Source: a virus (taxonomy: Duplodnaviria; Caudoviricetes). From it: a DNA stretch of 64,000 bases. Position numbers and translations under genes: made by a program. The stretch spans positions 1,366 through 65,365 of IMG/VR virus record IMGVR_UViG_3300017754_001906, one strand, 5' to 3'. A model generated the notes under the pieces. It saw nothing but the letters and a program-made list of their open reading frames with translations, ran no database searches and was not told where the DNA came from. Positions 25,588 to 52,778 of the stretch are shown here, piece by piece (position 1 is the stretch's first letter; each line of letters begins with the position of its first letter).

Positions 25588-26370
25588 ATGTTTCGAAAAA
25601 GACGCAGACCGACGCCAGAGTTCAAGGTTCCCTCGCCGTATAACGCGATGCGTGGGGACCATGATGACTTGCAGCTATTTGGCGAGTTTCCGTACTGCGC
25701 GATGATGCAGGTGGCGTGCGAAGACATCTACGAGAACTATGTAGTGTGCCGAGGGTTCGACCCAAGAATGCTCAAGTTCATAGATTACGCCGAGAACAAT
25801 GCTGAAAAGCCAGGTATTTCAGTAGCCAAGCCATATGGCTGCAGGGTCACTTCTGGTGGCGCGAAGAGATACCGAAAAGGCGAGATATTCATGGCTGTCT
25901 TGCCCACTCAGGGCATTGCGGAAAACGATGTGCATTACGTTCCTCCGTCCCCAGTGGAGATCGAGTGGCGGCTCGGGCAGAACCCAGGTGTTGTTTCCGG
26001 GGTGAATTATGGCGGACAGCCAAAGTGCTTGACGAACGAAATCAACATCCTTTATGACCACAACGACATAGTCATCAACTGGATGCTGGTTCATGGAGAG
26101 AACAAGCTATTCAGGTTTCAGTCAACAGAGGCGCTCACAGGGACACAGTGTCAGGCGTGCGTTCGGCAAATGTCTGGTTACTGGCCGCACACGGCTACTA
26201 TTTACGATCCTCAAGGCGTGTATCTTGGCATGGTGGCAGGAACGAAGGGTTACGTCATGTTCCAGGAGGGAAAGTACTACATCGTAGACGCGAAGTGCGA
26301 CCCGGACACAATAGAAGCATGCGAATGCACTGCGGTTGGCGACGACTGCGAGTGCGTTGGAGGGGAGTAG
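25588..26370 (+). CDS. hypothetical virion-region protein with Cys-rich C-terminus
   Basis: 260 aa; ends KCDPDTIEACECTAVGDDCECVGGE. Confidence 0.65.
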   Translation: MFRKRRRPTPEFKVPSPYNAMRGDHDDLQLFGEFPYCAMMQVACEDIYENYVVCRGFDPRMLKFIDYAENNAEKPGISVAKPYGCRVTSGGAKRYRKGEIFMAVLPTQGIAENDVHYVPPSPVEIEWRLGQNPGVVSGVNYGGQPKCLTNEINILYDHNDIVINWMLVHGENKLFRFQSTEALTGTQCQACVRQMSGYWPHTATIYDPQGVYLGMVAGTKGYVMFQEGKYYIVDAKCDPDTIEACECTAVGDDCECVGGE

Positions 26371-26382
26371 GTCTAAAAGCAC

Positions 26383-27825
26383 ATGGCGTGGAAAAAGTGT
26401 TGTTGCGGAAACTGCTTGATTTACGAAGACGATTTCAATCGGGCAGCAGAAAACAAACTGAATGGATCGTGGTGCGAGAGACCTGGGAGCTGGAGGATTG
26501 AGCCAGGGGAGAGCAAGGCTGCGTCTATTACTGCTGGCGCTCCGGCGATGGTTAGCATTCCTCATCCAGCTCCAGATGGATCGATGATTGTGCAGTTTTT
26601 TATTACGTGGAACGCACTCATAGATCCAATCCCAGAGGGGGATCCTAATTTACCAATACCTGCATCGACCGGTCAGCGATGGAGGATTATTGTTAACTCG
26701 CAAAAGCAAGATGTTACGGAGACGATCGGTGGTGTCTCAGTGACGTACTGCGCTCCATTGAGCTACTACTACGCAGAAGCCGAGGCTACAAGCTCAACTA
26801 CGTACACGATTCGGCTTGGAATGTCAGCGTGGAGTGCAGGGACTAGGACAGAGACGGAGCTGAAGAGTAGAGTTTACACATACGACCCGCTTACCGAGCA
26901 TCCTCCTTTTGGGGCGTGGATGACGGCAAGGATATCTGACGGCGAGTTTTGCGTGAACCTTGGGTTGATGTACGAAAGCTGCGGGAGTGTTGACTTTGCT
27001 GAAGATCCTGAAGAAAAGGGCTTAGTCTGGCTGTCTGTGGTTCACCCTGGTTTGTTCGCTAATGGCTACTACTGTGGAATGCAGATGAGCCAGACAGATA
27101 TGTACGTCACTCAGTTTTCGTTCCGAGAGCATTTTAAGACTCTTGTAAATTCTCCTTCGGTTCGGAACGCATGTCCTGAGGTGACGGAAAACCCAAGGTG
27201 TGACTACTGCTTCTGCACTTGCGGGAATGAAGTCACTGGGGACGTTGAAATACTTCCAGACATCATTAACTACAGGATTCGACCGGCAGACGCAAGTTAC
27301 TATTGCTCGTTCGTTAGCTATCTGAACGACTGGCACTGCTACGGGCAGCTGGTGCTAGACTCGGAGAACGCTAGATGGATCCAGGTGCCGATAGACGGGA
27401 AAAACAGGAAGGTTTGCTGCTACAGAGAGGACAACCCAGTGCCTCAAGAGTTTATTATCTCATTCCACTGCCCAGCCGTGTTCCAGGACGACCCAGAGAA
27501 ATGCCCGAGGTGGTACTTGAAGGTTTCTGGTGGTGGCGTTTGGCCGCCTCCTGTTGGTGATAAGCCTGGCGTCGTTGGAGGGTGCTGCCTCGTTGGAGGA
27601 AACATTATTGGGAGCATCGAGGAATGCATAATCCCTGACACCATGTGCAATTGGGAGCGAGCTGGAAGCAATGGAACTTGCCGAAGCTGGACATTCTGTT
27701 ATCCGTCTGCGGGCTGCAGTTGCCCAAAGCTTCCGGACGAGCCTGATCCTCCGCCTCAGCCGCCAGATGCGCCTCCTCCACCTCCCCCCTTGATATGTAC
27801 TATTTGCGTTGATATTTGGTGGTAG
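26383..27825 (+). CDS. very Cys-rich protein (CCC N-terminus, Pro-rich C-terminus)
   Basis: MAWKKCCCGNC...; about 30 Cys in 480 aa by my count; poly-Pro tail. Confidence 0.7.
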   Translation: MAWKKCCCGNCLIYEDDFNRAAENKLNGSWCERPGSWRIEPGESKAASITAGAPAMVSIPHPAPDGSMIVQFFITWNALIDPIPEGDPNLPIPASTGQRWRIIVNSQKQDVTETIGGVSVTYCAPLSYYYAEAEATSSTTYTIRLGMSAWSAGTRTETELKSRVYTYDPLTEHPPFGAWMTARISDGEFCVNLGLMYESCGSVDFAEDPEEKGLVWLSVVHPGLFANGYYCGMQMSQTDMYVTQFSFREHFKTLVNSPSVRNACPEVTENPRCDYCFCTCGNEVTGDVEILPDIINYRIRPADASYYCSFVSYLNDWHCYGQLVLDSENARWIQVPIDGKNRKVCCYREDNPVPQEFIISFHCPAVFQDDPEKCPRWYLKVSGGGVWPPPVGDKPGVVGGCCLVGGNIIGSIEECIIPDTMCNWERAGSNGTCRSWTFCYPSAGCSCPKLPDEPDPPPQPPDAPPPPPPLICTICVDIWW

Positions 27826-29006
27826 GGAAAAGCATGAGTGCAATTTGGACGGTTTGGACATGCAGCGTTTGCGGATATACATCCAACGACCCTGATTTGA
27901 ATTTTCCGACGATATGTCCGTCATGCAAGCTTATCTATTCTTCTCCAGACAGGGTTTTCGATCCATCTCGTCGCAATAACGATCCAGATCGCAAGATCGT
28001 GGGTGCGAAGTTGATGCAGCGCGAGTTTGTTGAGCGAAAGAACAAGTGGGCGAATAGTCCTGTAGAGGCTGGACGCGCCGCGTGGGATAAATTGCATTCA
28101 TACACTGGTTGCGACCCTAGCTTCCTTGTGGAGTGGGAGAAAACCATTCCGTCATCATCCTGCAGCTGCAAAGAGTCGTATAACGTTTACAAGGCAGAGG
28201 ATCGTCCAGACTTCTCGAGCCCAATGGCGTTTTTCCGATGGGGCTGCAGAATACACAACCGAGTTAACGCAAAACTTGGGAAACCAGTGTTTGCGTTCTG
28301 GGAGGCAATCAAGCAATGGAAGCCGCAGCAGTCGCAGATAAGTGATCTGGTTGTCGTCACGTCAATGTCCTGTCTTCCGAAGCACTTGGAGGTTCAAGGG
28401 GAGAGTTTGAGGACTTGGAAGTCGCTTGGGTTGACGGTGATTTCTGGAAACACTCCGGAAGAGATACCCATCCTTCGAGAGTTGTACGACATCGAGTTTT
28501 TCGAGGTGCGACCATCATTGAGTTACGACAGACCAAACCCTCGCGTGTACGATTTACTGCAGCTCGGAGGAGATCGAGCTAGGCTTATGATCAACTCCGA
28601 CATTGCTATTTACGGAGATCAGAGAATGCTTATTGACGCTGTGAAGAACCAGGAAAACCTTTTGGGATTGCGGCAGAACTGGGTTGGATCGATAAGCAAT
28701 CTAAAGGTGGAAAGGTGGGGGATAGACGCTTTCATTATCCACCCGGAGCAAGCGGCAACGTTCCCAAATCTGGACTTCGCGATCGGACAAACCATGTGGG
28801 ACTACTGGGTTCCGTATCACCTGCAAAAGATTGGCGGTAAGTTGCGATGGTATGGCGATCCGTTTTTCTTCCATGAAGCACACCCGATTCACTGGAAAGA
28901 AGAGTCCACAAGTATTGGGCAGGGGATGATCGCGTCTCATTACGGAGAGACCATCGACTGGGAGGGTTGGAGGAGAAGCCTTCCGTTTGGGGAGCCTAGA
29001 CGATGA
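27816..29006 (+). CDS. Zn-ribbon + Erv1/ALR-like sulfhydryl oxidase + glycosyltransferase-like fusion
   Basis: CSVC/CPSC; WDKLH...IPSSSCSC...PDFSS...FFRWGCRIHNRVNAKLGKP (ERV/ALR signature); C-terminal LMINSDI...WGIDAF...IGQTMWDYW resembles GT-A-like phage proteins. Confidence 0.75.
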   Translation: MVVGKSMSAIWTVWTCSVCGYTSNDPDLNFPTICPSCKLIYSSPDRVFDPSRRNNDPDRKIVGAKLMQREFVERKNKWANSPVEAGRAAWDKLHSYTGCDPSFLVEWEKTIPSSSCSCKESYNVYKAEDRPDFSSPMAFFRWGCRIHNRVNAKLGKPVFAFWEAIKQWKPQQSQISDLVVVTSMSCLPKHLEVQGESLRTWKSLGLTVISGNTPEEIPILRELYDIEFFEVRPSLSYDRPNPRVYDLLQLGGDRARLMINSDIAIYGDQRMLIDAVKNQENLLGLRQNWVGSISNLKVERWGIDAFIIHPEQAATFPNLDFAIGQTMWDYWVPYHLQKIGGKLRWYGDPFFFHEAHPIHWKEESTSIGQGMIASHYGETIDWEGWRRSLPFGEPRR

Positions 29007-29563
29007 GGCACGCATCCAAGAAAAGCGTCTTTAGGGTGCTTCGCAACCTGAGGATCTCGGTGGTGATCGACATAGGCGCGGAGCGTTGCACAGAAAGTCT
29101 GATCGAGGCATTTCCGGACGCCCATCATGTTTTGATCGAATCCAACCCCACATGGATCCCGCTGCACAAAGACGTTTACAGCGAGATCTCATTCGAATCC
29201 CACAATTTCGCGGCAAGCTCCCAGAATAGAGTCGATGAGCTGAAATTCAGCGATTGCGGTGGTCCTGTGCTTCTAAAAATCGATGTGGACGGTCAGGAAC
29301 TGGATTGTCTGCATGGATGCTCAGGGCTATTTGAGAGGGTGTCTGCGGTGGTTGTTGAGGCTACAACGGACAGGCTTTCCGGGATAGTGGATTTTCTTGA
29401 GCGGCACAACTTTCGACTGTTTGACATAGTTGATCTTTGTTACTGTGGTCCGCAGCTTCACCAAGTTGACCTAGTGTTTGTCCACGCCTCGGCAGAGGGG
29501 CATGTCAGGGTGGCGTGGGACATAAACTTGTTCCAGGACAGCAGTTTGCTAGCCACAGACTGA
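29003..29563 (+). CDS. FkbM-family SAM-dependent methyltransferase
   Basis: VIDIGA, LIESNP, LLKIDVDGQELDCLHG, VVVE, LHQVDLVF. Confidence 0.85.
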   Translation: MRHASKKSVFRVLRNLRISVVIDIGAERCTESLIEAFPDAHHVLIESNPTWIPLHKDVYSEISFESHNFAASSQNRVDELKFSDCGGPVLLKIDVDGQELDCLHGCSGLFERVSAVVVEATTDRLSGIVDFLERHNFRLFDIVDLCYCGPQLHQVDLVFVHASAEGHVRVAWDINLFQDSSLLATD

Positions 29564-31360: not shown

Positions 31361-34300
31361 ATGAGCGATGTTTTTAGTTTGTTCGATGAAGTTGAAAATG
31401 AGCAAAGCAATAAAGGCGCGTCAACCCCAAGCATTGATCCGCGAGAGCAAGAAATTAGAGATCGCAACAAAATTTCCGCGTATGACGGAAATGAGTTGTT
31501 TAGTCTGTTTGACGAAGTCGCAGGAGACAGAGAGGTAGAGGCTCGTCGTCAGCAGCGAGCCTACGCCGAAAAAGCCTCGCTTACTGACCCGGATACTTAC
31601 ATAGCAACAACGAAGATGTTGCTAACCACTGGAGGTCGAGATCAGCAGCTCGAAGTCCTTCGCAAACTGACGCCTGAGCAGCGAGAAGCGGCGTTGAAGC
31701 TAGCCCCCGGCATAGCGCAGCAGTTAGGAGACGAACGCGGCGGGGCTGTTATGCGAACTATCGATGCTGTTAGTCGTGGTGCAGCTGGCGTTCTGCAACC
31801 TGTCATGGAGCTTACGGGTCTGGGTGGAACACCGGAGGAAATCGATTACCTTCGTAAGTTGAACTCGGCGTCTCAAGAGTTTGCTCCTGCGCGTCCAGAC
31901 GACCCTTGGTATCAGCAGGGAGCATTACAAGCTGCTGAAATGACTCCTGGGATGGTGATGATGGGGCAGGGCGGTGTTCTTGGCGGAGCTGTTGGTAAGG
32001 CTGCTGGCACAGCTCTCGGGAGGGCAGCTGCTGCTGGTGTTCCTGGAGCTAAGACAGCTTTCCAAGCCGCAGGCGCAATTGGAAAAGTTCCGGCTGCCGT
32101 TGGTCTTAAGGGCGCGACGACGAAGGGTGTGTTTGAGGGAATCGGGAGCGCTGCTGGTGTTACGGCTACATCATGGGCTCCTCAGTATGCTCAGGAGGTG
32201 GATGCGCTAAAAGAGCTTGGTATGCAGGATGGATTGGTTCTTAGGGCTCTTGCTGGCACAACCGCTGCCGCTGTGGGACTGATCGAGAGCATAGTCCCAA
32301 ATCCGTGGAAGGCTGGTAACGTTTCATTTAAGCAGGGTGCTATCAAAGCTGCTCGCCAATACTTATGGCAGGCTTCAAAAAACCTACCAGGGGAAATAAC
32401 CGAAGAAGGTCTTCAGGGTGTCGCAAGTGGTGTCGGCGAGCATGTGGCTCAATACCTCGACAAAGATGCCAAGAAGAAGACGATAGGAGAGGCTTTTAGC
32501 AAGGGATGGCAGCAAGCAAGTGACTCCGTGTTGCCGCTGGTGTTCATGCTTGGTGCGCCCGGTGTTGCAGGTGCCGCATCTGTGGCGATCAGGGCGAGGC
32601 GAGAGCAGCTGGAGCAATTGCGATCCAAGGGCTTTGTCTCTAAGGATGACGCGAAGAAGGCTGGGATCGAGGTCGGAACTCGCAAGGAAATAGCGGCTAA
32701 CGTTGATGCAGAAATTGAAGACCTGAAATCGCGGGAGTTAATTGCCAGCGTCAATGAGAGTGGCGCAGCCGCAGAGTCGCCGCAGGCGAGTCCTGGGCAA
32801 GCTGGAGTGTCCGTTGAGTCGCAGCAGGAAAATGTTGTTGCTCCTCCGCCACTTCCGCCACAGCCCCAAGGTGAAGTTCCTCCGCCTATTCCACCACAGC
32901 AGCAGGGTGCAGCTACTCCTCCGCCGATTCCGCAACCTCAGGAGCAGGCTCCTCCCCCAGTACCACCTCAACCACAAGAGCAGGTGCCGCCTTCATTGCC
33001 GCCTCAGCAGGCGGATCAGCCAGAGCCACAGTCTGCAAACTTTGATGCATACACCAATGCCGCATGGAAAGCAGCCGGGAAGGAAGGTCCAGTTTCCGAA
33101 AACTACAAGGCTAGCCAGAAGCAATTCGTTGGCAGCGCGGCAGACTACGGTATTCAGCAAGGGCGAGTAATTGCCTTTGATAGGAAGGATGGTTCCTCGG
33201 AGTTGCAATTCGCAGCAATAGCAGATGAGCTAAATCAGCGAGGTTATGAAGCTGGTCCAGTCAAAAAGTCCAGAAGCAATGGTATCGACAACATTGAGTT
33301 TTCCGTAACTAAAAAAGCGACAGTTGCGACTCCACCTGACACAACGTCAGTAGGCATGAAGTCGCCTGATCAACAGCCAGTCTCGTCGCCAGTCGCAGAA
33401 AAAGATGTTGCTGCTCCGCAGGCTGATGTCACGCCTCCAAGTAAGTTTGCAAGCTGGACTGTTCAGCAAGGCAGTGACGGGAAGCTGTATCGCGTTGATC
33501 CAAAAGCGAAAACAAAATACGAAAAGGCAAAGACTCGACAGCCAGTTGATCCAGCGGAAGTTGTCGTTGCCACACAAGATCAGTTTGGAAATCCGATAGA
33601 CAGAAAACTTGTCGGCGTTCGTCAAGAGTTTGCAAAGAATGCCAAGCCAGGAGCTGAATTTACGTGGTCGTCCTATCCAACGGCTAAGTTTAAGGTTCAG
33701 TCCAATGGCGATATTTTGGATGTCACCACTGGCAGGAGGATGGGGACGGTTCAGTCTACGTCCAACAACGCTGCCCTTAAGGCGAATAGCATTAAGTGGA
33801 CTTCACTGCCAGCTCCTGCTGCTCAACCTGCAACCGCTGCTCCGCAAGCCACTGAGCAGCCTGCCGTTATTGCGACACCAGTAGCCAAGCAACCGCAAGT
33901 TCCGCCTCAGCCGCAGGCTCAGGAAGTACGAAGTCGGGGCGAGAAGACAGCAACGGATATCTCAAAGGCTCTAGATGGGCTAGGTAAGGGTGCTGTTGAC
34001 GGGTTGTACACCAAGGTATGGAATGATGCGCAGTCTGGGCAGCTTCAAAAAATGGACAAGCCTCCATTGTTTGAGCAATTGGTTTTGAGGGGTTATGAAA
34101 AAGGTGTTGTTCGATCGCTTGAGGACGTTCGTTCTATCACAGAGGGGATGACGGGTGATTTTGAGGCTGACAAGGTGGTTGGGGTCAACAACCTAAACAA
34201 ACTGGCAAGCAAATACCAGGGACAGCAGCCGGTCGCAAAGCAACCGCAAGTCCAATCGCAATCAAAGTCCCAGGATCAAGCCGTTTCTGTGCCAACTGCG

Positions 34301-37300
34301 AAGCCCGCTCCGCAGGCACCGAGTCAGCAGGTTGCTCCTGTCGTGCCATCACAAGAAGTGTCCTCAGCTGTTGAAGAGCCATCGACGGCAAAGCCCAAGT
34401 CGGAACCAGCGAAGGTTGAGGGAGAAGAACAGAAGAAGCCTCTCAGCCAGCCGGTAGCGGATGAAGCAGGCACTAAGAAGCCAAAGTCGTCAGCGAAGCA
34501 AATGACTCCAAGAAGCTACTTGGAGAGCAAAACTGATCGTCAGCTAAAAACACTGGCAAAAGACTTAGGATTGAAAGCTGACAGCCGCGAGGGCGTTATT
34601 GAATCGCTTTTGCAGAACCCTGATGTTGTCGATTCGCTGAACAGCGCTCTGCAGAAAGCAAAGCCTTCAAAGCCTCGCAAGAAAAAGCCTGCTCCAGCTA
34701 AAGATGCTGCAAAAGGCAAAGAGCCTATACCAGTGAAGATGAGATCTTCGATGGGTACGACTAGAGAGTTGTTGCCGAGCGAGCTAACAGCGGCTGAGAA
34801 GAAGCAGAAAAGCATTCTCGAGAAAATGGGAGTCACTCTGCGATTGATTGAAGGAGGTAGCTTCAATACACCTGGGGCTTTCAATCCTGAGTCTATGACT
34901 GTTTGGCTCGATCGGTCTTACATAGAGCACATGGATTCCTTGTGGCAAAAGCAAGGTCGTCCTCCAGAGTCAATGACGTGGGGGTTGTTTTTGCATGAGA
35001 TGTTCCATGCGATAAAGAAGATTGACCCAGAGGCATGGAATGGTCTGCGTGATTGGATCAATGCGAATCCTAATGAAAAAGAACTACTGGACAAGGCAAC
35101 GAGCGATTACGTTCGTGATTCAATTAACGCGCTAAAAGAAAGACTCTCGAAAGATTCCAGGAACTCAGGAAAAACAGTCAATATCAAGGGAAGGCTTTCA
35201 ACAGCAGACCATGTCAGGTCGGCTATAAAAGCAGCGAAAGCCGCTGGTGTTGAAATCAGCGACGGCACAATAGCTGCTGCCGAATACACTATTAAAGTGC
35301 TTAGCAACGAGGACGTGAGGAACGAAGAAGGGCTCTCAAGGTATTTGGAAGACAAGGCTGGAGACTTCGATTTTTGGGACGATCTTGGAAACGACAATCC
35401 GAGCTTATTGGCAAAGATCGGTCGCTGGTTGCTCAGGGCGTTGCGACTTGCCGATTCAGATACTCTCGCTGGGCAGACGCGAGCTGCTATCGAGAAGGCG
35501 ATGAAGCGAAACAGTCTTGCAACTGGAGAAGATCTAGGGATTCGTGCTGCTGTAAGCAAGGGTGATTTCTCTGTAGGCGACATCAATGTCGATGAAGTCA
35601 GAGCGAAGGACAGGAAGGGCAACCGCGTATCAAAAGGTCTCGCTGTAAAATCCGTAAAAGGCACAAAGGTTTACGAGGAGACAGACGATCTGTCATTCGA
35701 TTACGTCAAGAAAAACGCTCCAGATGTGTTTATTAAGAACGCCAACACGATTGCTGATTACCCATTAGTGCGTGGAAAGAGGGTGTTTGAAAAGGCTCGC
35801 ACAGTAGAACAGGCACAAGAGATATACGATGTGTTCGTCAGGGAGGTAGCCGACAACCTAAACTACCTATATTCAGAGTACGACAGTGAATTTAGAATGC
35901 CATCTACTCTCTGGTATGACGGCGCAAACGCGATAGCTAACAGGCTGGCTGATGATTACAAAGTATCTCCAGAGCAGGTGGCTGGAATTATTGCTGCCAT
36001 GTCTCCGCAAAAAGACTGGTATCAGAATGTAAGACTTGCCGAACTGCTGCTTGAAGCGTTCAGGGTCAACCCGGTGATGACTCCGGAAATGATTGCCCAT
36101 CAGAGGGACGTAGTTAGGGTTGATGGTCTCAAAGGATACAGCAGGAAGGTTAGACTTGCTGAGAGTGCGCTCGCTAAAGCAAACCTCGAGTATAAGGGAA
36201 CCACGCTAGAAAATTATCGCAAGATTGAATCGGTGCTTTCTTCTGGGGCATTTCTGCAAGAAGGTGGTAAGACCTCTTCCGAGTTGCAGAAGCTTGCCTC
36301 ACAAGCAGGTGTTGGTTTCGCAAAAGCGACTGGACAGTTAAAGTCAAAAATGAGCCCAGACGAAAAGGCGTCTCTGCAAAAAATAGCGAATTGGGCTATC
36401 ACGATTTTTAAGGAAGGTGCAGCAGCATCTCCTGGAGAGTCGCTTTCTGACAGTGATCTGAAGAAATTGGTTAGCGAGCATCGCAGGGAAGTTAAATCCG
36501 CAATTGATGACAGTGCAGCGTCGTTAGTGGCTGCTAAAGCCAAGCTGGCTAAGTCTACAACAAAAGCCGATGCCGTAGTGAGCAAACTCGAAAGCCATTT
36601 AGGCAAAACTCTTGACAGTGTTCCAGAAGAAATCCAGTCCTTCATGGTAAGGTTGTATCATGAGGTAAACACGACCAAGGACTACAACGTAATTGCTCCC
36701 GACGGACGTGCTGTAGGCGTAGCTAAAAATGATAACGGAGAGAACGCGAGACTAGCGTGGGGATCCTATGGAGAGATTGGGAAGGGCGTTTCGATTAGGA
36801 ACAATGGAAGCCCAAGAAATATTACGAGGCGACTAGGGCAGCAGCACAAGATCCGAAACTTTTACAACAACATCATTGATCCGATGAGCGAGGATGGTGA
36901 TGTGACGATGGATACCCATGCGATTGCAGCAGCACTGCTGATGCCTTTGTCGGGGAAGTCGACCCAGGTCACTCAGAACTTCGGTGGCAGCGGGGCTAAA
37001 AACGCGGGAGCTTTTGGAATCAAGGGGCTATACTATGCGTTTGCTGAAGCATATAATGTATCCGCAAAAGAAAACGGATTGCTGCCAAGGCAGATGCAGA
37101 GCGCGACTTGGGATCCAGTTCGCGGCTTGTTCACGGACGTGTTTAAGAGCGTCAAGAAGAACGTAACAAAAGTCAACGATATTTGGGAAAGTTACGCAGA
37201 TGGCAAAATATCAGTCGAAGAAGCAAGAGAACAAGTCTTTGAAGCAGCCGGTGGAATCGACACTCCCACCTGGGCCAGACCCGCTCGAGAAGATGTTGGA

Positions 37301-40300
37301 GGATCTGTACGGAAGAAACGTGACAGAGGACGAGTACGAGGAGATGGACAGGCTTCTGTCGGGGCTACCGATGGAGGAGGAGATGGAGGACGAAGATACT
37401 CTCCAGGACGAAGCGGACGAGACGCAACCGTTGCCGTCCGGGGAAGTCTCGGCGTTGATGAAAGAGTTTGGAGTCGATCGACAGACAGCCGAAAAGTGGG
37501 CGGATATGATCTAACTGCTAGGTATGTAGCTGACGTTGCAGAATGGGCGGAATCTGGCGTCAGTGCTCCAGCCTTTATTGAGCTAAAAGCATCGGATAAA
37601 TCGGCGAGGCAATTTTCCGAAGCGATTACTTCGGCACGCGAAAGCCAAGGAAAGCTAGGGGCGTCAGTTTATGTTTATCCCGACCAAGACTACCGGGATA
37701 TGCGGCTGTTTCTGACGGAGGACGGCAAGGCTGGGTTTGCGTTGAAGGCGACCGACGACCCCAGTATTACGGATATCGTATCGGTGTTTAATACGGCTGG
37801 TAGCCTTCATCGCGGCGTAAGTTACGCGATGATACGACTGGCGGTCGAAGAGGGCGGTAATACGCTTGATGCGTTCGACACATTCCTGCCGGTGGTTTAT
37901 TCAGCAAACGGATTCCGAGCGATTTCCCGCATTAAGTGGGACGACGACTTCGCTATGGAAGGCTGGGACAAGAAAGCTTATTCGGATTTCAATAATGGTG
38001 AGCCGGACATCGTCTTCATGGCGTATGATCCGCAGCAAACAGAGATCTATCGCGTTGACAGCAGAGAAGGTGACGTATTTGATACGTACGACGAAGCCGT
38101 CGCATCACAACGATTGGTGGCGAAGAAGAATTACCTGGAGTTACAAGAAAGGAAAAAGCAGAATGCCAAAGCAAAGCAAGGTGGAAAACGATATTCGCCT
38201 GGACGACGACCCGAATCGACCGGAGACGGAAGAGGACGAAAAGGCATTGGGAAGACGGAGGCTCTTGCAGGCTCGCCATCGGTCCCAGGCATTAACGGGC
38301 CGGATCCCGAGGTCGTTGCGGTTGCCGAGCGATACGCCAAAGAGTATGGGATCGATCTCAAGCGACAAGCCGAATACGTCCAAGTAGACGAGGATCGGGC
38401 AAGAAGGATAGCCGATGCGTATGCGCAGATGCCGCATGATCCGCAGGATCCTAAGGTCAAAGAGGCGTACCAAGAGCTTATTAAGCAAACCACGGATCAG
38501 TACAGGGCGTTAGAGGACGCTGGATATAAGTTCTGGTTTATGGATCTAGGGATTCCTAGCAACCTCGAGTACGCATCGAGCCCGTATAATGCTTTGCGAG
38601 ATTTGCGAAGTAATAAGCAGATGGGTGTATTCCCGACAACAGACGGCTTCGGGACAAGCGACCTTGATGTAAACGACAATCCTCTGCTTGCGGATACAGG
38701 AATTTTGTGGGCGTCAGGAGGGCTAGATGGGGAAATGAAGCCCGTCTTGGCTAACGATCTGTTTCGGGCTGTTCATGACGCTTTTGGACACAGCCTAGAA
38801 GGTGCAGGGTTTAGAGCGAGGGGTGAAGAAAATGCTTGGCAGGCGCATGTGCGTTTGTTTTACGGGTCAGCAGTAGGTGCTATCACTAGCGAGACCCGTG
38901 GGCAGAACTCTTGGTTGAATTACGGACCTCACGGAGAAGCGAACCGTAATGCAAAAGTCGAAGACACGATTTTTGCGGACCAGAAAACCGGCTTGATGCC
39001 CGAGTGGACGTGGACCGAGGGTCGTGCTGCAGACATGGAAGATGTTGGCGATGCCGACATGAATGGTCCTGATCTGGAGTCTGGACTGCAATATGCAGTT
39101 GCAAGACCGCAGTTGGCTAAGAAGCTCAACTCTGGGAAGAAGGTTAAGCTGTACCGTGCGATGCTCCTAATTGACGGAAAGCTTTATCCTCCCATGTCGT
39201 CTCGAAGCAAGAGCGACGAAGGCAGGCTAGCTATGCGTCCAGGAGAACCTATTGGTCAGTGGATGCAATCGGAGGAGAGACCGGAACTCGTTCCCAAGAC
39301 AGGAAAGAACGCAGGGAAGTTTCCTCTGCAAAAGCCAAAAGGTGTTACGTGGGCTGCTTATGCTCCGTACTTCCATGCGTCTCCTATGCCTCTTAATGAT
39401 CAGTTTACGGCATCATGGCTCAACGATGGTATTAGACGACCACGCATGGTGATCGTCGAGGTTGAAGTCCCAGAAAGCGAAATGACGAGCGGCTATCAAG
39501 CCGAGGGATCAAGCAAGAAGGTGGGTTCGAATAAGTGGAGGGCTGGCGTTGTTGCTTCCAAGCTTCCAGGCGGCAGGGAGGTTGTTCTCTCCAGGTACTT
39601 GCGTATCAAGCGAATAGTCCCAGATGCTGAAGTGGCGAAGAAGATCGCCGACATTGTTAATCCGGCGAGGCTTTCTGTACCAGAGAACGTTATTACGCCA
39701 CAGCTACGTGCAGAGCTTGAGAAAAATGGAGTTCGCATTTCTGCAAAGGGTACGAAGGGCGAAGGAATCCGCTATTCTCCCGGTCGCCGCGTAGACGAAA
39801 AGTATCTTGCTGCGGTCAAGGACGGTGACAAGAAGCTTGCGCAGAGATTGGTGAACAAGGCTGCTCAGAAAGCAGGAGAGTTTGCTGGCGGTGTTTCTCC
39901 GGTGGTTTATCACGGAAGTCCGCATGCTGCGTTTTACAAGTTCCAGATTCCTAGCAAGGGTTTCAATAGCACGGTATTTGGATCTTACGAGGTAAGCAGG
40001 AATGCTGCGTTCTTCACTCCAGATAAGACCGCTGCCTCCAATTACCAGACCCAAGGTGGTCGCACAAGCGGCAGCACTCGCAAGTTTAGGATCTTTGGCG
40101 AGATGCTGGACTGGAGAAACGGCATATCAGACGCTCAGTTCAATACGCTTGTTGATAACGGCGTGAACTCGAGATGGCTAGGTCAGAAGGGTGCTTCTTG
40201 GGAGTTGTTCGATAAAGAGCAGGATCCTGAAGGTACTCTTGTAAAAGCCATCAAGAAGATGGGGTACGATGGGGTGATTATCCGCGACACGGATGGAGAA

Positions 40301-43300
40301 AATGATTTTGATGCTTACGTTGCGTTCTCTCCTTCTCAAATCAAATCTTCAGATCCCGTCACTTACGATGACGCCGGAAACGTCATTCCGTTGAGCAAGC
40401 GGTTTGACGACCTCCAGAGCGATGTGCGTTATTCCCCAGGTCGCAAGAAAGATGCCATTCTTGCAGCGTTGTACAAGCAGCTGGAAGAGAAAGGTGCGAT
40501 CAAGCCGAAGGCGGCAGGAGATAGAACAACTAGCATCAAGAACCGCAAGACCGACGAATTGCGAGCAGAGTCTGGGTTCCCTCCGAGAGTGCGTCCATCC
40601 AGCGAGTCTTTTGAAGAATGGGAGGAGCGAGCTCGACAACAGTACCCAACTGCAAAGGATCGCCTGAAGCTCATAGCAGAGGCGGAACGCTATCCAGAGA
40701 AAATTGGCAAGATAGAGAGCGCAGCGATTGGGCAGCACATTACATATCTCGACAATCAGCGAATCGCTGGGAAGAATGTCGTAGATGAACTGCGAAGAAC
40801 AATCAAGGTTGCCAATACTGTTGGAACCGAAGCGGGTCGTGCATTGGTTAGTCGCAAGGTTGAGAGATATGGCGACTTCTCTTTGGCTGGTCTTATCAGC
40901 GAACACATGCGAGTTGCTGGCACCGATCCCACCGACAGTCAGATTCAGGATTACGCTGAACTTGCCGATCGCATTAAGCAATTGGAAGCAGACAAGGTGG
41001 AGCTAGCGGAAAAGCTTGCTAAGGAAACCATAGCGAGGATAAAGGCGGAAGCAGAAGCGAAGCCAGCAATTGAGCCGACAAAGCCGAAAAAAGGCACCAA
41101 GCGAGCTGCATTGCTTAAGAAAGTTGCTGACAGCTTTGCAGCGTTTCAGAACGCATGGGGACAAGAAAGATTCTCTGTAGGCAGAACTCCAGCATTGGAA
41201 GCCATTGCTGACTTTGGGTTTGGAACTGAAACACTTCCGGATCCTGCAACGGTGTCTCGCAGTGAATGGTTGCGAGCGTACATGCCTCTAGTAATGCAGG
41301 GGGTTCCTGACGCAGACATCAGCGAAAAGGACATGAATGTGTTGGCGTCTGCTTTTGGCGACGACAATCCATTCGCTCCAGATAGCAAGCTGATGAAGAT
41401 GCTTGGCAAATGGGCTATCCAGTCTGATTTGCATGAGGCAAACTGGGGGGATGGAGTGCGTGTTCTTTTCGAAGATAAGTCTCCAGCAACTCGCATGATG
41501 TTAGAGCAGATTTCTAAAGAGTCTGGGGTGAGTGCAAATCGAGACGACTTCTATGATCCAGCGGATTACAAGTCGCTTGCTAAGGCTTTTGTGAAGTATC
41601 TTCCGAAGCACCTCGCAAAGAAACCGGAAGGTTATTCGTATGGCTATTCGGACACGAAGCGATTGCTCGAGACATCTAAGGCGCTGCTAGATCCGCTCGA
41701 GTACGCCATCAACGTATGGGAGGGGTCACAGCAAGCCGCATCTGTCGATGTAAATCCTGACATTCGATACTCTCCAGGAAGACAAGATGACGCCGCACAA
41801 ACTGCTGCAGCTAATCTGGTCAAGTTGCTTCGCGAGATGGGCGTTAGTTCTACGCTTGAGTTTGAGCTTCAGATCAAGGCGAACTTGAAGAACGCTTCAC
41901 CAGAGCAGATGCAGGCTTTGATGGATGCGTGGAACGCAAGTAGTGAAAAAACGGATGTGGTGTCTCCTTTAGGCGATGATCCTGACAACGCTGACATCGG
42001 CGCTAGAGCTAAGGAGTTGATGAGACTGGCTATCGAAGCTGGATATGGTGCTAATCCTGAAACGTGGATGGAGGTTGTTGATGTAGTTCATGAACAACTT
42101 TCGCTCGATGTTCCAGGTATCGATAAATACGACACCATGCAAGCCATGAGTGACTATGGCGTCTGGCGGAAGCTTTCTGGAGAAGAAGTCGCAGTCAAGA
42201 CTCGGGCTATTCGCGGCAAGGCAAGGCAATCATTAAAAATAGAGGACACGCTAAAGGCGATTGCACAAAGCGAAGCATGGCTGAAGGATGGCGTAAGCCC
42301 GGAGGAGGTAGCACGTCGTTTGAGAGAGAAGAATCTTCTTCCGAAAGCAACTGGTAGGGAGCAGGCGACTCCCGACAGCATTGAGCGAGAGCTAATTGCG
42401 GAGTTCAACAAGCTGAAGAAAACATTGCCAGTTCCTGCTGAATCTCGAGAGGGGCAGTTGAAGTCGGCTTTGAGTACGGCAAAGACCTCCGCGAAGAATA
42501 GGCTAGAGATGCTCGACAACGACATCTCGGCATTAGAGGATGCGGTCAAAAACAGAAAAGAGCTCGTCAAGCCAGTTGCTGAGAAAACTCGTCTGGAGCC
42601 GGATGCAGAGCTTGAAGACCTTCGCAGCCAGCTAGACGCAAAGCGGCGGCAGCGGGATGAATTGAAAGCCGCGTACAGCGAGATATTCCCGTCTGCCAAA
42701 GCAAAGCGAGGGCGAAAGCCACTTACTGATGAACAGCGGCTAGAGGCATCTATGAAGCTGCTTGCCCGTCAGATTGACGCAGTGAAGGCGGACATACAGG
42801 CGTTAAACAGCGGGTCATGGGCGCCTGCGGCAAAGAACGCTGAGCTTACATCTGCAAGGAAGGAGCAGCTGAAGTCGGATCTGGCATCGCTACGAGAAAC
42901 CCAGAAGAGGGCGAGAAAAGCAAGTCCTTTGTATCAGGCTCTTCAGGAGACGAAATACTGGGAAAGGTATCGGAAGACCCAGGAGAAGCGACTGGCGTTT
43001 TGGGAGAATCGCCGCGACGAAGCAAAAGCCGGAAGACTCCCTGTGCCACTGCAGAAGCGTACTATTGTTGAGAAGGACATCCTCGAGAAAAACCTGGAGA
43101 TCGAGGAAAAGAAATATGAGGCAATGATCGCGATCGAGAAGGCTACTCGAGCAAACTGGAACGCTGGGCAGTGGATAGGGCAAGGCTTGCTTGAGGCTAC
43201 GTCACTGATACCTAAGACGTTGATGCTTGGGCTCGAGATGTCATTTGTACTGCGACAAGGATTTTTCTACACCTACTCGCAGCCGATGAAGGCTTTCCGT

Positions 43301-44854
43301 GCGCTAACCGAAGCCATGCCAGCAGTGTTTAGTCAGCGACTTGCACTGGCATCTATGGAGAGCATCGAGAATAGACCAAACGCCGATGAGTACCTTGATG
43401 CGAAGGTGGACTTTACAAAAGCAACCGGTCCGCAAGCAAAACTAGAGGAGTTGTACCAGTCGGCTGTTATTCAATGGCTCGAGAGAACAGAGACAAAGCT
43501 TTTGCTGCCTTTAAGAGCGTGGGCAAAGGTTTATCAGATGTTTGAGCGTGGCAACAGAACGTTCTCGAACATCATGAAAGCCGACATGTACGATATCCAA
43601 AAGCGGGATACACTGGCTGCGCGTGAGTTCTTCGGATTGAGTACTGAATGGACAAATAATGACATCAAGGAAACCGGACGAATAACGAACATCTTCAGCG
43701 GAAGAGGCACTGGAATAAAAGGCGGAAGCCCGTGGCTTGATTGGCTGTTCCTAGCTAGACGCTGGACGTGGTCGCGAATCCAGGCAGACTTCATTGTTCC
43801 TTTCCAGCTCGTTACTCCAGAATGGATCGGTCAGTGGAACGCGGATCGCGGAATGCGAGTGGCGTTGGCTAAGTTGTACATTCAATCTTTGGTTGGTCAT
43901 GCAGCGAAAATGGCTGCAGCTTACTTTGCGTATTCCGTTTTGGCGGGAGACGACGAAGAGAAGAAACCAACAATGGAGTTTGATTTGCGATCTAGCGATG
44001 CATTGGCACTCAAGGTCGGCGAGACGAGATTCAAAGACGAAGGCGGTATGATGCCAGCCATCGTTTTGGCTGCAAGGATTGCAACCGGCAAGATCAAAAC
44101 TGGCAAAGGGGAGATCAAGTCGATTTATGGAGAGGACGTTCAGCACGGAGGAAAAACCGCTGCCGACTTCTTGATCAATTACGGTCGGTACAAGCTAGGC
44201 ACAGCGCCATCTGCGATACTCGAATGGATTTCTGGCAGAGATGCGGTTGGTACGGTTATAGAGGACAAGGACGATCCGACAGCAATATACAGAAATATAG
44301 CTTCCAGCCGATTAACTCCGCTGACGTACCGAGAAATATATGCGGCAGAAAGCGAGCTTGGTCTTAAGAGAGGCACGCTGGCTGCACTCGAAGCGTTTTT
44401 TGGTGTTTCCGTTTCAACGCATGGTGACCGTACCAAGTACAAGAAGGGTAGCGAGGCAGATCGCAAGAAGCAATTCGACAACGATCTGAAGGCTATGCAA
44501 TGGAATAGTCCAGATCCCGCCTACAGCGACTTGCTTTCCAGCGAACAGATGGAGGGGGTTAGCAAGAGAAGAGAGGCAAAACGGCAGGGGCTTATCTTCG
44601 CAGCTGGAGCGAATCCCCAGAGGAAGGATTACAAAAACGCTGAGAATTATGACAAAGCCGTTGCGGAGAGAGATAAGGCGAGACAGGAAATGGCTGAATC
44701 TGGCATAACGCTTCCTGAAGCTCGATCGCTCCTCATTGAGTATTACAAGGATAACTATGGATCAGCCTACGAATTGAAGGGTGGATCCTACGTTATGAAG
44801 GGCTCAGCAGTTGCTAGATTGCGAGAAATCAAGCGGCAATTTAGTGGTAAATAG
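31361..44854 (+). CDS. giant polyvalent internal virion protein (4497 aa; zincin MPTase-like, HhH-glycosylase-like, GNAT-like and ADP-ribosyltransferase-like domains)
   Basis: HEMFH at 34994; WYDGA...AMSPQKDW...KIRNFY...VTMDTHA; GKAGFALK...GGNTLDAFD; VYHGS...FFT...GYDGVII...DPVTYDDAGNVIPLSKRF; RYSPGR linkers. Confidence 0.8.
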   Translation: MSDVFSLFDEVENEQSNKGASTPSIDPREQEIRDRNKISAYDGNELFSLFDEVAGDREVEARRQQRAYAEKASLTDPDTYIATTKMLLTTGGRDQQLEVLRKLTPEQREAALKLAPGIAQQLGDERGGAVMRTIDAVSRGAAGVLQPVMELTGLGGTPEEIDYLRKLNSASQEFAPARPDDPWYQQGALQAAEMTPGMVMMGQGGVLGGAVGKAAGTALGRAAAAGVPGAKTAFQAAGAIGKVPAAVGLKGATTKGVFEGIGSAAGVTATSWAPQYAQEVDALKELGMQDGLVLRALAGTTAAAVGLIESIVPNPWKAGNVSFKQGAIKAARQYLWQASKNLPGEITEEGLQGVASGVGEHVAQYLDKDAKKKTIGEAFSKGWQQASDSVLPLVFMLGAPGVAGAASVAIRARREQLEQLRSKGFVSKDDAKKAGIEVGTRKEIAANVDAEIEDLKSRELIASVNESGAAAESPQASPGQAGVSVESQQENVVAPPPLPPQPQGEVPPPIPPQQQGAATPPPIPQPQEQAPPPVPPQPQEQVPPSLPPQQADQPEPQSANFDAYTNAAWKAAGKEGPVSENYKASQKQFVGSAADYGIQQGRVIAFDRKDGSSELQFAAIADELNQRGYEAGPVKKSRSNGIDNIEFSVTKKATVATPPDTTSVGMKSPDQQPVSSPVAEKDVAAPQADVTPPSKFASWTVQQGSDGKLYRVDPKAKTKYEKAKTRQPVDPAEVVVATQDQFGNPIDRKLVGVRQEFAKNAKPGAEFTWSSYPTAKFKVQSNGDILDVTTGRRMGTVQSTSNNAALKANSIKWTSLPAPAAQPATAAPQATEQPAVIATPVAKQPQVPPQPQAQEVRSRGEKTATDISKALDGLGKGAVDGLYTKVWNDAQSGQLQKMDKPPLFEQLVLRGYEKGVVRSLEDVRSITEGMTGDFEADKVVGVNNLNKLASKYQGQQPVAKQPQVQSQSKSQDQAVSVPTAKPAPQAPSQQVAPVVPSQEVSSAVEEPSTAKPKSEPAKVEGEEQKKPLSQPVADEAGTKKPKSSAKQMTPRSYLESKTDRQLKTLAKDLGLKADSREGVIESLLQNPDVVDSLNSALQKAKPSKPRKKKPAPAKDAAKGKEPIPVKMRSSMGTTRELLPSELTAAEKKQKSILEKMGVTLRLIEGGSFNTPGAFNPESMTVWLDRSYIEHMDSLWQKQGRPPESMTWGLFLHEMFHAIKKIDPEAWNGLRDWINANPNEKELLDKATSDYVRDSINALKERLSKDSRNSGKTVNIKGRLSTADHVRSAIKAAKAAGVEISDGTIAAAEYTIKVLSNEDVRNEEGLSRYLEDKAGDFDFWDDLGNDNPSLLAKIGRWLLRALRLADSDTLAGQTRAAIEKAMKRNSLATGEDLGIRAAVSKGDFSVGDINVDEVRAKDRKGNRVSKGLAVKSVKGTKVYEETDDLSFDYVKKNAPDVFIKNANTIADYPLVRGKRVFEKARTVEQAQEIYDVFVREVADNLNYLYSEYDSEFRMPSTLWYDGANAIANRLADDYKVSPEQVAGIIAAMSPQKDWYQNVRLAELLLEAFRVNPVMTPEMIAHQRDVVRVDGLKGYSRKVRLAESALAKANLEYKGTTLENYRKIESVLSSGAFLQEGGKTSSELQKLASQAGVGFAKATGQLKSKMSPDEKASLQKIANWAITIFKEGAAASPGESLSDSDLKKLVSEHRREVKSAIDDSAASLVAAKAKLAKSTTKADAVVSKLESHLGKTLDSVPEEIQSFMVRLYHEVNTTKDYNVIAPDGRAVGVAKNDNGENARLAWGSYGEIGKGVSIRNNGSPRNITRRLGQQHKIRNFYNNIIDPMSEDGDVTMDTHAIAAALLMPLSGKSTQVTQNFGGSGAKNAGAFGIKGLYYAFAEAYNVSAKENGLLPRQMQSATWDPVRGLFTDVFKSVKKNVTKVNDIWESYADGKISVEEAREQVFEAAGGIDTPTWARPAREDVGGSVRKKRDRGRVRGDGQASVGATDGGGDGGRRYSPGRSGRDATVAVRGSLGVDERVWSRSTDSRKVGGYDLTARYVADVAEWAESGVSAPAFIELKASDKSARQFSEAITSARESQGKLGASVYVYPDQDYRDMRLFLTEDGKAGFALKATDDPSITDIVSVFNTAGSLHRGVSYAMIRLAVEEGGNTLDAFDTFLPVVYSANGFRAISRIKWDDDFAMEGWDKKAYSDFNNGEPDIVFMAYDPQQTEIYRVDSREGDVFDTYDEAVASQRLVAKKNYLELQERKKQNAKAKQGGKRYSPGRRPESTGDGRGRKGIGKTEALAGSPSVPGINGPDPEVVAVAERYAKEYGIDLKRQAEYVQVDEDRARRIADAYAQMPHDPQDPKVKEAYQELIKQTTDQYRALEDAGYKFWFMDLGIPSNLEYASSPYNALRDLRSNKQMGVFPTTDGFGTSDLDVNDNPLLADTGILWASGGLDGEMKPVLANDLFRAVHDAFGHSLEGAGFRARGEENAWQAHVRLFYGSAVGAITSETRGQNSWLNYGPHGEANRNAKVEDTIFADQKTGLMPEWTWTEGRAADMEDVGDADMNGPDLESGLQYAVARPQLAKKLNSGKKVKLYRAMLLIDGKLYPPMSSRSKSDEGRLAMRPGEPIGQWMQSEERPELVPKTGKNAGKFPLQKPKGVTWAAYAPYFHASPMPLNDQFTASWLNDGIRRPRMVIVEVEVPESEMTSGYQAEGSSKKVGSNKWRAGVVASKLPGGREVVLSRYLRIKRIVPDAEVAKKIADIVNPARLSVPENVITPQLRAELEKNGVRISAKGTKGEGIRYSPGRRVDEKYLAAVKDGDKKLAQRLVNKAAQKAGEFAGGVSPVVYHGSPHAAFYKFQIPSKGFNSTVFGSYEVSRNAAFFTPDKTAASNYQTQGGRTSGSTRKFRIFGEMLDWRNGISDAQFNTLVDNGVNSRWLGQKGASWELFDKEQDPEGTLVKAIKKMGYDGVIIRDTDGENDFDAYVAFSPSQIKSSDPVTYDDAGNVIPLSKRFDDLQSDVRYSPGRKKDAILAALYKQLEEKGAIKPKAAGDRTTSIKNRKTDELRAESGFPPRVRPSSESFEEWEERARQQYPTAKDRLKLIAEAERYPEKIGKIESAAIGQHITYLDNQRIAGKNVVDELRRTIKVANTVGTEAGRALVSRKVERYGDFSLAGLISEHMRVAGTDPTDSQIQDYAELADRIKQLEADKVELAEKLAKETIARIKAEAEAKPAIEPTKPKKGTKRAALLKKVADSFAAFQNAWGQERFSVGRTPALEAIADFGFGTETLPDPATVSRSEWLRAYMPLVMQGVPDADISEKDMNVLASAFGDDNPFAPDSKLMKMLGKWAIQSDLHEANWGDGVRVLFEDKSPATRMMLEQISKESGVSANRDDFYDPADYKSLAKAFVKYLPKHLAKKPEGYSYGYSDTKRLLETSKALLDPLEYAINVWEGSQQAASVDVNPDIRYSPGRQDDAAQTAAANLVKLLREMGVSSTLEFELQIKANLKNASPEQMQALMDAWNASSEKTDVVSPLGDDPDNADIGARAKELMRLAIEAGYGANPETWMEVVDVVHEQLSLDVPGIDKYDTMQAMSDYGVWRKLSGEEVAVKTRAIRGKARQSLKIEDTLKAIAQSEAWLKDGVSPEEVARRLREKNLLPKATGREQATPDSIERELIAEFNKLKKTLPVPAESREGQLKSALSTAKTSAKNRLEMLDNDISALEDAVKNRKELVKPVAEKTRLEPDAELEDLRSQLDAKRRQRDELKAAYSEIFPSAKAKRGRKPLTDEQRLEASMKLLARQIDAVKADIQALNSGSWAPAAKNAELTSARKEQLKSDLASLRETQKRARKASPLYQALQETKYWERYRKTQEKRLAFWENRRDEAKAGRLPVPLQKRTIVEKDILEKNLEIEEKKYEAMIAIEKATRANWNAGQWIGQGLLEATSLIPKTLMLGLEMSFVLRQGFFYTYSQPMKAFRALTEAMPAVFSQRLALASMESIENRPNADEYLDAKVDFTKATGPQAKLEELYQSAVIQWLERTETKLLLPLRAWAKVYQMFERGNRTFSNIMKADMYDIQKRDTLAAREFFGLSTEWTNNDIKETGRITNIFSGRGTGIKGGSPWLDWLFLARRWTWSRIQADFIVPFQLVTPEWIGQWNADRGMRVALAKLYIQSLVGHAAKMAAAYFAYSVLAGDDEEKKPTMEFDLRSSDALALKVGETRFKDEGGMMPAIVLAARIATGKIKTGKGEIKSIYGEDVQHGGKTAADFLINYGRYKLGTAPSAILEWISGRDAVGTVIEDKDDPTAIYRNIASSRLTPLTYREIYAAESELGLKRGTLAALEAFFGVSVSTHGDRTKYKKGSEADRKKQFDNDLKAMQWNSPDPAYSDLLSSEQMEGVSKRREAKRQGLIFAAGANPQRKDYKNAENYDKAVAERDKARQEMAESGITLPEARSLLIEYYKDNYGSAYELKGGSYVMKGSAVARLREIKRQFSGK

Positions 44855-44917
44855 GCTGTTTGGCAGTACAATACGGTTTTGTGCTGCCCAGTATGTGGTT
44901 TTCTTGAAAGGGTTTAT

Positions 44918-45328
44918 ATGTCTCAGGCAATCTTGCTAATTGTTCAGCTTTTGACGCTACTTCTTCGAACTGTCGCAGCTCACGAAGACTGCCCAGACGG
45001 TGCGTGCCGTGCTCCACTTGACGCAGCCGAGGAGCTTTCGGTCCAGCTGAAATCGCCCGCTGTAACTGTGGGTATCTTCGATCTGTTCCGCTTCTTGCGC
45101 TGCTTCCCGATGGATCGCGTTCTAGCCGTTGGAAAGCGTATTGTGGCTCTGTTTGGCAATTGTGATAAATGCCCAGACGGGGAGTGCAGTTTTTCTGACA
45201 TCCTGAAATGTCTCGATCTACAGGAGGTCATCTCGATTGTCAAGGAAATCATTGACATCATTCGAGACAGTCAAATCTGCGACGGCAACAGCCGAAACGA
45301 AATCACGCTAGGCGAAGCTGTTTCGTAG
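44918..45328 (+). CDS. exported/membrane Cys-rich protein
   Basis: Hydrophobic N-terminus MSQAILLIVQLLTLLLRTVAA; CPDGAC and CPDGEC motifs. Confidence 0.65.
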   Translation: MSQAILLIVQLLTLLLRTVAAHEDCPDGACRAPLDAAEELSVQLKSPAVTVGIFDLFRFLRCFPMDRVLAVGKRIVALFGNCDKCPDGECSFSDILKCLDLQEVISIVKEIIDIIRDSQICDGNSRNEITLGEAVS

Positions 45329-52777: not shown

Positions 52778-52778
52778 A

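Follow-up and report, generated by a model that had tools for sequence, protein, structure and literature searches.

A predicted Erv/ALR oxidase domain with a CxC site, fused to a glycosyltransferase-like domain and encoded next to a cysteine-rich tail protein, in a tailed phage

Results

The Erv-GT protein and its Erv/ALR domain

The DNA analyzed here is a 64,000-nucleotide stretch of a tailed phage (the window), corresponding to bases 1366-65365 of the 65,365-bp IMG/VR virus record IMGVR_UViG_3300017754_001906, which is rated complete by CheckV. Its plus strand encodes a protein that joins a small Erv/ALR sulfhydryl oxidase domain to a glycosyltransferase-like domain of GT-A fold (Erv-GT; maximal open reading frame (ORF) at 27816..29006). 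The gene directly upstream encodes a Cys-rich, probable tail protein. On balance, we consider it probable that Erv-GT is a cytoplasmic maturase that oxidizes and glycosylates this tail protein. An initial interpretation of the DNA letters (the sequence-only reading) had already suggested a disulfide-forming step, coupled to glycosylation, for the Cys-rich virion proteins encoded nearby.

The maximal ORF starts at a TTG codon and would give a protein of 396 amino acids (aa). Translation more likely begins at the ATG at 27834, because the purine-rich sequence GGGAAAAG lies just before it, because it follows the stop codon of the upstream gene at a distance of 9 nt, and because the copies and clusters of the fusion protein in the databases are all 390 aa long, as expected for this start. 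An AlphaFold2 (AF2) model built on 20 homologues reached a mean predicted local distance difference test score (pLDDT) of 85 and divided the protein into an Erv fold (residues 81-172) and a GT-A fold (residues 173-396).

The Erv/ALR homology claimed by the sequence-only reading was borne out by Pfam, by a PDB sequence search, by a family profile and by the fold. The domain spans residues 80-172 (28053..28331, plus strand) and is a minimal version of the fold, a five-helix bundle. The hidden Markov model check that had been suggested gave a Pfam Evr1_Alr match of 36 bits (cut-off 27.6, E 9e-9) for residues 117-169, covering profile positions 41-93 only. In a phmmer search of PDB sequences, ALR, Erv1 and Erv2 were matched (best E 2.3e-7), and a family profile made from ten phage Erv domains matched ALR over the whole domain, end to end (profile positions 6-95, E 7e-13). 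Structure prediction, the second check, yielded an Erv fold for residues 81-172 (pLDDT 80-94). Fold matches were scored (Z) in a structure search independent of Foldseek, with the AF2 model as query. The best Erv structural match was pB119L of African swine fever virus (ASFV; 3gwl, Z 11.3, root-mean-square deviation (rmsd) 1.9 Å, 90 of 102 residues), and yeast Erv1 (4e0i) and Erv2 (1jr8) were both matched with Z 10.2.

Conservation was assessed in an alignment of 20 homologues with identities down to 37%. W90, H94, I111-P112, C116, C118, H147, N148, V150 and N151 were invariant, and K153 and W168 were conserved in at least 90% of the sequences. According to the profile alignment, the flavin-site residues W90, H94, H147, N148, N151, K153 and W168 coincide with the same residues of ALR. 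The resemblance to Erv goes far beyond chance, and the motifs lie where they had been read from the DNA, with W90 at 28083, C116-S-C118 at 28161-28169, then H147-N148 and the KLGK motif, and W168 at 28317-28319. We regard it as nearly certain that the domain has the Erv fold and that its flavin site is intact, and infer from the conserved residues that the domain would bind flavin adenine dinucleotide (FAD). A predicted homodimer of the Erv domain with FAD scored 0.11 (mark 0.42) and was used neither for nor against this conclusion.

The redox-active CxxC of Erv enzymes is replaced by C116-S-C118 (28161..28169, plus strand), located at the N-terminus of helix 3. This CxC, spotted in the sequence-only reading, was kept in 20/20 aligned homologues. 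In the profile alignment, C118 falls on the second, flavin-proximal Cys of the ALR CxxC and C116 on the x residue that follows the first Cys; where ALR has this first Cys, the phage domains have Ser or vary. Among the best 150 representatives of the wider clade (see below), 132 carry CxC and 16 carry a canonical CxxC whose last Cys occupies the same column; the fused relatives L015-L017 have P-G-C-x-x-C, again ending on this column. Because both Cys are invariant and the CxxC relatives end on the same column, the CxC site is, judging by the sequences, a redox pair under selection, in which the interchange cysteine is shifted by one residue. Because CxC replaces CxxC, we classify the domain as a divergent variant of the Erv/ALR family (PF04777) and not as a typical member. 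It is fairly likely, from this pattern of conservation, that the site is active.

N-terminal to the Erv domain, four Cys (C16xxC19 and C34xxC37; 27855..27959, plus strand) are placed on beta hairpins in the AF2 model (pLDDT about 82). The sequence-only reading had called this element a Zn ribbon. The four Cys and the modelled hairpins agree with that assignment, but the match of residues 14-38 to Pfam RUBY_RBDX (E 1.9e-4) stays at 21 bits below the 26.5-bit cut-off, so that the Zn ribbon is only probable. The element is missing from 8 of the 20 aligned homologues.

A large clade of phage Erv proteins

In order to delimit the clade, the Erv profile was searched against 1.84 billion proteins. 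It matched 4425 cluster representatives at E<=1e-3 and 813 at E<=1e-10, and the clade proteins were unnamed in all sources where they were matched. The sequence-only reading had described Erv/ALR oxidases as not standard in tailed phages. This holds for the literature, in which we found no paper on them, but not for uncultured phages, where 813 clusters indicate that they are not rare. The clade consists mostly of standalone proteins of 100-200 aa. Of the 150 best representatives, 113 were standalone and not longer than 200 aa, and their N-terminal extensions varied and were mostly without Cys. Erv proteins of this type are encoded by at least 134 stretches of viral contigs in IMG/VR, found with an alignment of standalone relatives.

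The Cys-rich protein encoded directly upstream

The gene directly upstream of Erv-GT (26383..27825, plus strand) encodes a protein of 480 aa with 30 Cys (6.2%), which we presume to be the substrate from its Cys count, its AF2 model and its alignment. At its N-terminus is a CCCxxC cluster, residues ~12-250 form a lectin/ConA-like domain, and the C-terminal half is rich in Cys and Pro. A second Cys-rich late protein, possibly a further substrate, is encoded just before it (25588..26370, plus strand; 260 aa, 12 Cys, 4.6%) and is syntenic in close relatives. The Cys-rich neighbors to which the sequence-only reading had referred are thus present directly upstream as these two genes. In most other structural genes of the window, Cys accounts for 0-1.5% of the residues, and a 4497-aa protein contains none.

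Only residues ~12-250 of the 480-aa protein were modelled with confidence by AF2, as a concanavalin-like sandwich. Its best matches were the receptor-binding domain of phage TM4 gp23 (Z 18.6) and a baseplate protein of mycobacteriophage Douge (Z 18.0), and CBM2 of the phage J-1 Dit was matched as well (Z 16.3). In BFVD, the matches were minor tail, tail fibre and receptor-binding proteins. Because the modelled fold resembles phage receptor-binding, baseplate and tail fibre proteins, the partner is probably a tail protein, and probably a carbohydrate-binding one. In an alignment with relatives (identity down to 26%), Cys occupied 11 of the 32 invariant columns.

The sequence-only reading had named co-occurrence with Cys-rich genes as a check, and the association turned out to be strong. 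Among genes of at least 150 aa in nine IMG/VR lineages with fused Erv, the gene directly upstream was the most Cys-rich gene in eight and the third in the remaining one. A Cys content of 4.4% or more was reached by only 4.9% of the other (background) genes at fused loci. At the standalone loci with a recovered ORF, the gene directly upstream encoded in every case (65/65) a protein of 363-880 aa that contained 24-55 Cys (5.9-9.6%). In these 65 loci and in the eight fused lineages, the upstream gene was the most Cys-rich of its locus, with 4.4-10% Cys. A Cys-rich gene likewise preceded Erv at loci in metagenome-assembled genomes (MAGs) of Planctomycetota, and two loci with Erv fused to a GT4 glycosyltransferase had upstream genes with 6.2% and 6.4% Cys. 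Two relatives with only the GT domain (L020 and L021) had no Cys-rich neighbor. Taking the domain architecture and this pairing together, we think it probable that the 480-aa protein is the substrate of Erv-GT.

Most Cys-rich neighbors are too diverged to be linked by BLAST, yet they share an N-terminal M-x(2-5)-CCC-x-x-C. The motif is found at 26383-26420 of the window and, in related loci, at L004 8620, L010 5372, L012 6213, L014 8548, L015 8805, L104 6845, L105 6815 and L112 3943. In several of the Cys-rich tail proteins, the cluster is followed by a DDFNR-like start of the lectin domain. The cluster could possibly bind metal, be modified or form an inter-chain cystine knot. Its retention in neighbors that otherwise lack detectable sequence similarity would fit a different Cys chemistry, with either S-glycosylation of some Cys and disulfides among the rest, as in glycocins, or an inter-chain cystine knot at CCCxxC that locks a fibre oligomer. 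The GT-A enzyme SunS, which S-glycosylates a disulfide-containing peptide encoded by a prophage, provides a precedent for the first version. However, the top fold matches of the GT-A domain included no specific likeness to S-glycosyltransferases, and we consider such chemistry rather improbable in comparison with plain oxidation of the tail protein.

The GT-A-fold domain and fusions to other enzymes

The C-terminal domain of Erv-GT (residues 173-396; 28332..29003, plus strand) was identified by alignment and fold search as glycosyltransferase-like (Z 12-13.7), in agreement with the GT-A-like domain proposed from the sequence. Its fold matches were CHSY3-CHPF (9q8z, Z 13.7, rmsd 2.8, 174 residues), the fucosyltransferase WrtF (9omh, Z 13.3; Foldseek E 4.3e-8) and heparosan synthase (Z 12.8). 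Nucleotidyltransferases of the same fold were also matched, with Z 10-11.7. T182-S183, N212, S261-D262, E299, W301-G302, D304, H353 and H356 are invariant, and the sequences INSDI, WGIDAF and IGQTMWDYW, already noticed before, are the best-conserved blocks. At what would be the DxD position of GT-A enzymes, which follows the strand 255-259, S261-D262 are invariant and N260 nearly so. H353 and H356, to judge from their conservation, could be further ligands.

This GT-A domain was carried by 11 of the 37 representatives longer than 200 aa. When ten others of this size were tested, a Glycos_transf_1 domain (GT4, GT-B fold) was found in seven, a weak GT8 match in one and a phosphoribosyltransferase domain in one. 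Proteins of the L004 group (610 aa) contain an extra inserted domain with a weak GT8 match (E 0.03). The mini-Erv domain has been fused independently to glycosyltransferases of at least two unrelated folds. From these domain combinations, the formation of disulfides and glycosylation seem to be functionally coupled and to serve one process, which supports the coupling that the sequence-only reading had suggested. That the GT-A domain of Erv-GT glycosylates the same 480-aa tail protein is a more tentative proposal.

Other combinations of these domains were also observed. The Erv/GT relatives P0032 and P0147 are fused to a phosphoribosyltransferase domain, and at L019 9686-11365 the GT-A domain is joined to a sulfotransferase-like C-terminus.

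Evidence against a disulfide-forming maturase

Several observations weigh against the function proposed here. The literal CxxC that defines characterized Erv enzymes is absent, and we know of no Erv enzyme with a flavin-proximal CxC that has been characterized. The ALR-type Cx16C structural disulfide is also missing (C144 is not conserved and its partner position is Phe), and there is no conserved shuttle disulfide, because several homologues lack the N-terminal ribbon. In the GT-A domain, the DxD position has a single Asp (N-S-D), and residues 174-396 matched no Pfam family at E<=0.01 and no PHROG. As the nearest language-model clusters (Atlas) are, in addition, unnamed viral proteins of ~220 aa, the domain has a GT-A fold but represents an undescribed sequence family. 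In the presumed substrate, the Cys-rich C-terminal half was modelled at pLDDT <50, so that Cys pairs cannot be read from the model, and Cys-rich cytoplasmic proteins can bind metals rather than form disulfides. The adjacency of Erv and Cys-rich genes is inherited synteny among related phages, and independent observations are therefore fewer than loci. Finally, the methyltransferase gene that adjoins Erv-GT in the window is not conserved beyond the nearest relatives.

Some of these points would be explained if the Erv-like domain were dead or non-redox, acting as an FAD- or nucleotide-binding module or as a scaffold. The protein would then be, in essence, a glycosyltransferase for the tail protein, and the Cys of the neighbor would bind metal or become oxidized spontaneously after lysis. 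Besides the missing canonical CxxC and the Cys-rich half that could not be modelled, the GT domains without Erv that adjoin proteins with N-terminal Cys clusters (L018 and L019) are in line with this explanation. However, across 813 clusters, the CxC cysteines and the residues of the flavin site are all invariant or almost invariant, and CxxC and CxC alternate on one column. Moreover, most clade members are standalone Erv proteins that have no GT domain and yet keep the Cys-rich neighbor. CxC disulfides are also redox-active elsewhere, for example the CPC of Mia40 and the CGC on the tail of Erv2. We consider a non-redox role unlikely.

Phage setting and host

The window has a tailed-phage layout, with a weak match to the terminase large subunit and a match to SU10-type portal proteins. 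The late genes form a long block on one strand, which includes the 4497-aa ORF. Around position 56000, the sign of the GC skew is reversed and coding moves from the plus to the minus strand; here the block of late (structural) genes probably gives way to that of early genes. A transfer RNA scan of the 64-kb window found none. The fusion protein had no match in 50,697 deposited phage genomes (tblastn) and no family in PHROGs, and because both searches were empty, a comparison with cultured or deposited phages was impossible.

A search of one genome per species of GTDB placed 8/8 loci with Erv and GT relatives in Planctomycetota MAGs (Pirellula, Pirellulaceae, Planctomycetaceae and one unclassified). 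Two GT-only matches in the same set came from a Kuenenia MAG and a Burkholderiales MAG. The host of the phage is probably a planctomycete, and the MAG loci could be accounted for by binned phage contigs. In a Planctomycetaceae MAG, a 529-aa ORF with a large-serine-recombinase-like N-terminus (L105 2113-3702, minus strand) lies ~4 kb from the pair of Cys-rich and Erv-GT genes, which hints at a temperate lifestyle of some carriers.

The presence of relatives in Planctomycetota MAG contigs, one of them near this serine-recombinase-like gene, suggests that some carriers are temperate, and would also suit an enzyme directed at the host. Such an enzyme would oxidize host thiols or envelope proteins and glycosylate the host surface, for superinfection exclusion or receptor masking, and phage glycosyltransferases that modify host surfaces are indeed well known. 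The genomic and structural evidence points the other way. The Erv-GT gene is part of the late structural block, on the same strand as the tail gene and within 10 nt of it or overlapping it, and the pairing with a Cys-rich, tail-like gene was seen in every locus examined. In addition, the AF2 model shows no evident signal peptide or membrane segment, and an Erv-type oxidase must meet its substrate in the cytoplasm. A host target is very unlikely in our view, in comparison with the tail protein.

Other genes in the window and in related loci

An FkbM-type methyltransferase is encoded immediately downstream of Erv-GT (29003..29563, plus strand), its first 4 nt overlapping the end of the fusion gene, stop codon included. 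The closest relative has a non-homologous class I S-adenosylmethionine (SAM)-dependent methyltransferase (Methyltransf_9/23) in the same position (L002 11201-12022). This swap suggests that a non-orthologous enzyme was substituted and that methylation, perhaps of the glycan, plays a role. The FkbM enzyme was considered as a conserved third partner and rejected, as it is not kept beyond the nearest relatives; more distant ones have no methyltransferase there.

In most loci from L022 to L101, a calcineurin-like metallophosphoesterase (phrog_221 or phrog_7339) is encoded directly downstream of the standalone Erv gene (for example at L084 8215-9249), and L002 has a weak metallophosphoesterase match two genes downstream. 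The idea that the gene after standalone Erv is a split-off GT domain was rejected, since this gene encodes the metallophosphoesterase and does not match the GT profile.

The 4497-aa ORF (31361-44854, plus strand), which is free of Cys, contains six copies of [RK][YF]S[PV]GR, five of them exactly RYSPGR, at residues 2012, 2277, 2804, 3023, 3270 and 3469. The copies may mark where a protease cuts or where modules meet in what would be a polyprotein-like virion protein, internal or ejected. Three further Cys-rich ORFs without a Pfam family are located at 44879-45328 (plus strand, 11 Cys, 7.4%), 52761-53645 (plus strand, 14 Cys, 4.8%) and 60235-61092 (minus strand, 12 Cys, 4.2%), and may encode Zn-binding regulators or more substrates of the oxidase.

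Discussion

Phage particles are assembled in the bacterial cytoplasm, a reducing environment. The literature we found did not address how phage proteins with many disulfide bonds could be made. We propose that Erv-GT would be expressed late and would mature, in the cytoplasm, the Cys-rich tail (receptor-binding) protein encoded directly upstream. Substrate thiols would reduce the C116-C118 disulfide, and C118 would then hand the electrons to the flavin, from which they would reach O2 or another acceptor. In this way, disulfides would be introduced into the 30-Cys tail protein, and perhaps also into the 12-Cys protein, in the reducing planctomycete cytoplasm before lysis. The GT-A domain, probably metal-dependent, would add sugar to the same tail protein, and the adjoining methyltransferase may methylate the resulting glycan. 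The oxidase activity of the CxC site, the identity of the substrate, the glycosyl transfer and its acceptor are predictions of this model, derived from conservation, fold and gene order.

The nearest known parallels are the compact Erv oxidases of eukaryotic DNA viruses with cytoplasmic or nuclear assembly (ASFV pB119L, vaccinia E10R, baculovirus P33 and mimivirus R596), which likewise have a minimal, virus-encoded Erv fold. The presumed role is also the same, namely the formation of disulfides in virion proteins in a reducing compartment. An additional fused domain is carried by mimivirus R596 (PMC3509050). The eukaryotic-virus enzymes have CxxC and eukaryotic hosts, whereas the phage protein has CxC, a bacterial host and a glycosyltransferase fusion. 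They also differ in their partners, which are a thioredoxin-like relay in the eukaryotic viruses and a tail receptor-binding-like protein in the phage. In poxviruses, this relay is formed by E10R, A2.5L and G4L.

Cellular Erv1/ALR and Erv2 (PF04777) have the flavin-site motifs W..LH and HN.VN.KLGK and the C-terminal W in common with the phage domain. In comparison with Erv1/ALR, the phage domain has a loop between helices 1 and 2 that is ~12 residues shorter, and lacks the Cx16C disulfide and the conserved shuttle arm. A CxC is known from Erv2, where the CGC disulfide is a shuttle on the tail, whereas in the phage domain the CxC is located at the flavin-proximal site itself. QSOX, like Erv-GT, combines an Erv domain with a second functional module in one chain. 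In QSOX this module is a thioredoxin-fold relay, whereas the phage protein has a glycosyltransferase fold and no thioredoxin domain.

Two phage systems are also comparable. The sublancin (glycocin) genes of SPbeta comprise the GT-A S-glycosyltransferase SunS and the thiol-disulfide oxidoreductases BdbA and BdbB, and thus couple, on phage-borne DNA, a GT-A glycosyltransferase and disulfide formation on one Cys-rich product. In contrast to the system described here, the SPbeta enzymes act on a small secreted bacteriocin and are separate proteins, and the oxidoreductases among them are of the extracytoplasmic Dsb type. Tail-fibre chaperones of the Tfa and T4 gp38/gp57A type share with Erv-GT the position directly after the receptor-binding gene and a presumed role in maturation, but they are non-catalytic, whereas Erv-GT has two enzyme folds.

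Erv oxidases encoded by viruses count as a hallmark of the large DNA viruses of eukaryotes, and to our knowledge the Erv family is otherwise nearly confined to eukaryotes. We found no description of a phage-encoded Erv oxidase in the literature searched, most subscription journals being outside its coverage. In its widest form, our proposal is that planctomycete tailed phages have their own cytoplasmic machinery for oxidative folding and glycosylation of a disulfide-knotted receptor-binding protein, built on an unrecognized CxC subfamily of Erv, and that this clade is perhaps the source or a sister of the Erv proteins of giant viruses and eukaryotes. We offer it as a possibility. If it is true, a large phage clade would extend viral oxidative folding to bacteriophages, and the flavin-proximal CxC would be a new natural active-site variant for studies of the Erv mechanism. 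Disulfide formation would be tied to protein glycosylation through repeated, independent gene fusions, and the phage proteins would be compact enzymes for the production of disulfide-rich proteins in the bacterial cytoplasm. The finding is also relevant to how the Erv family originated.

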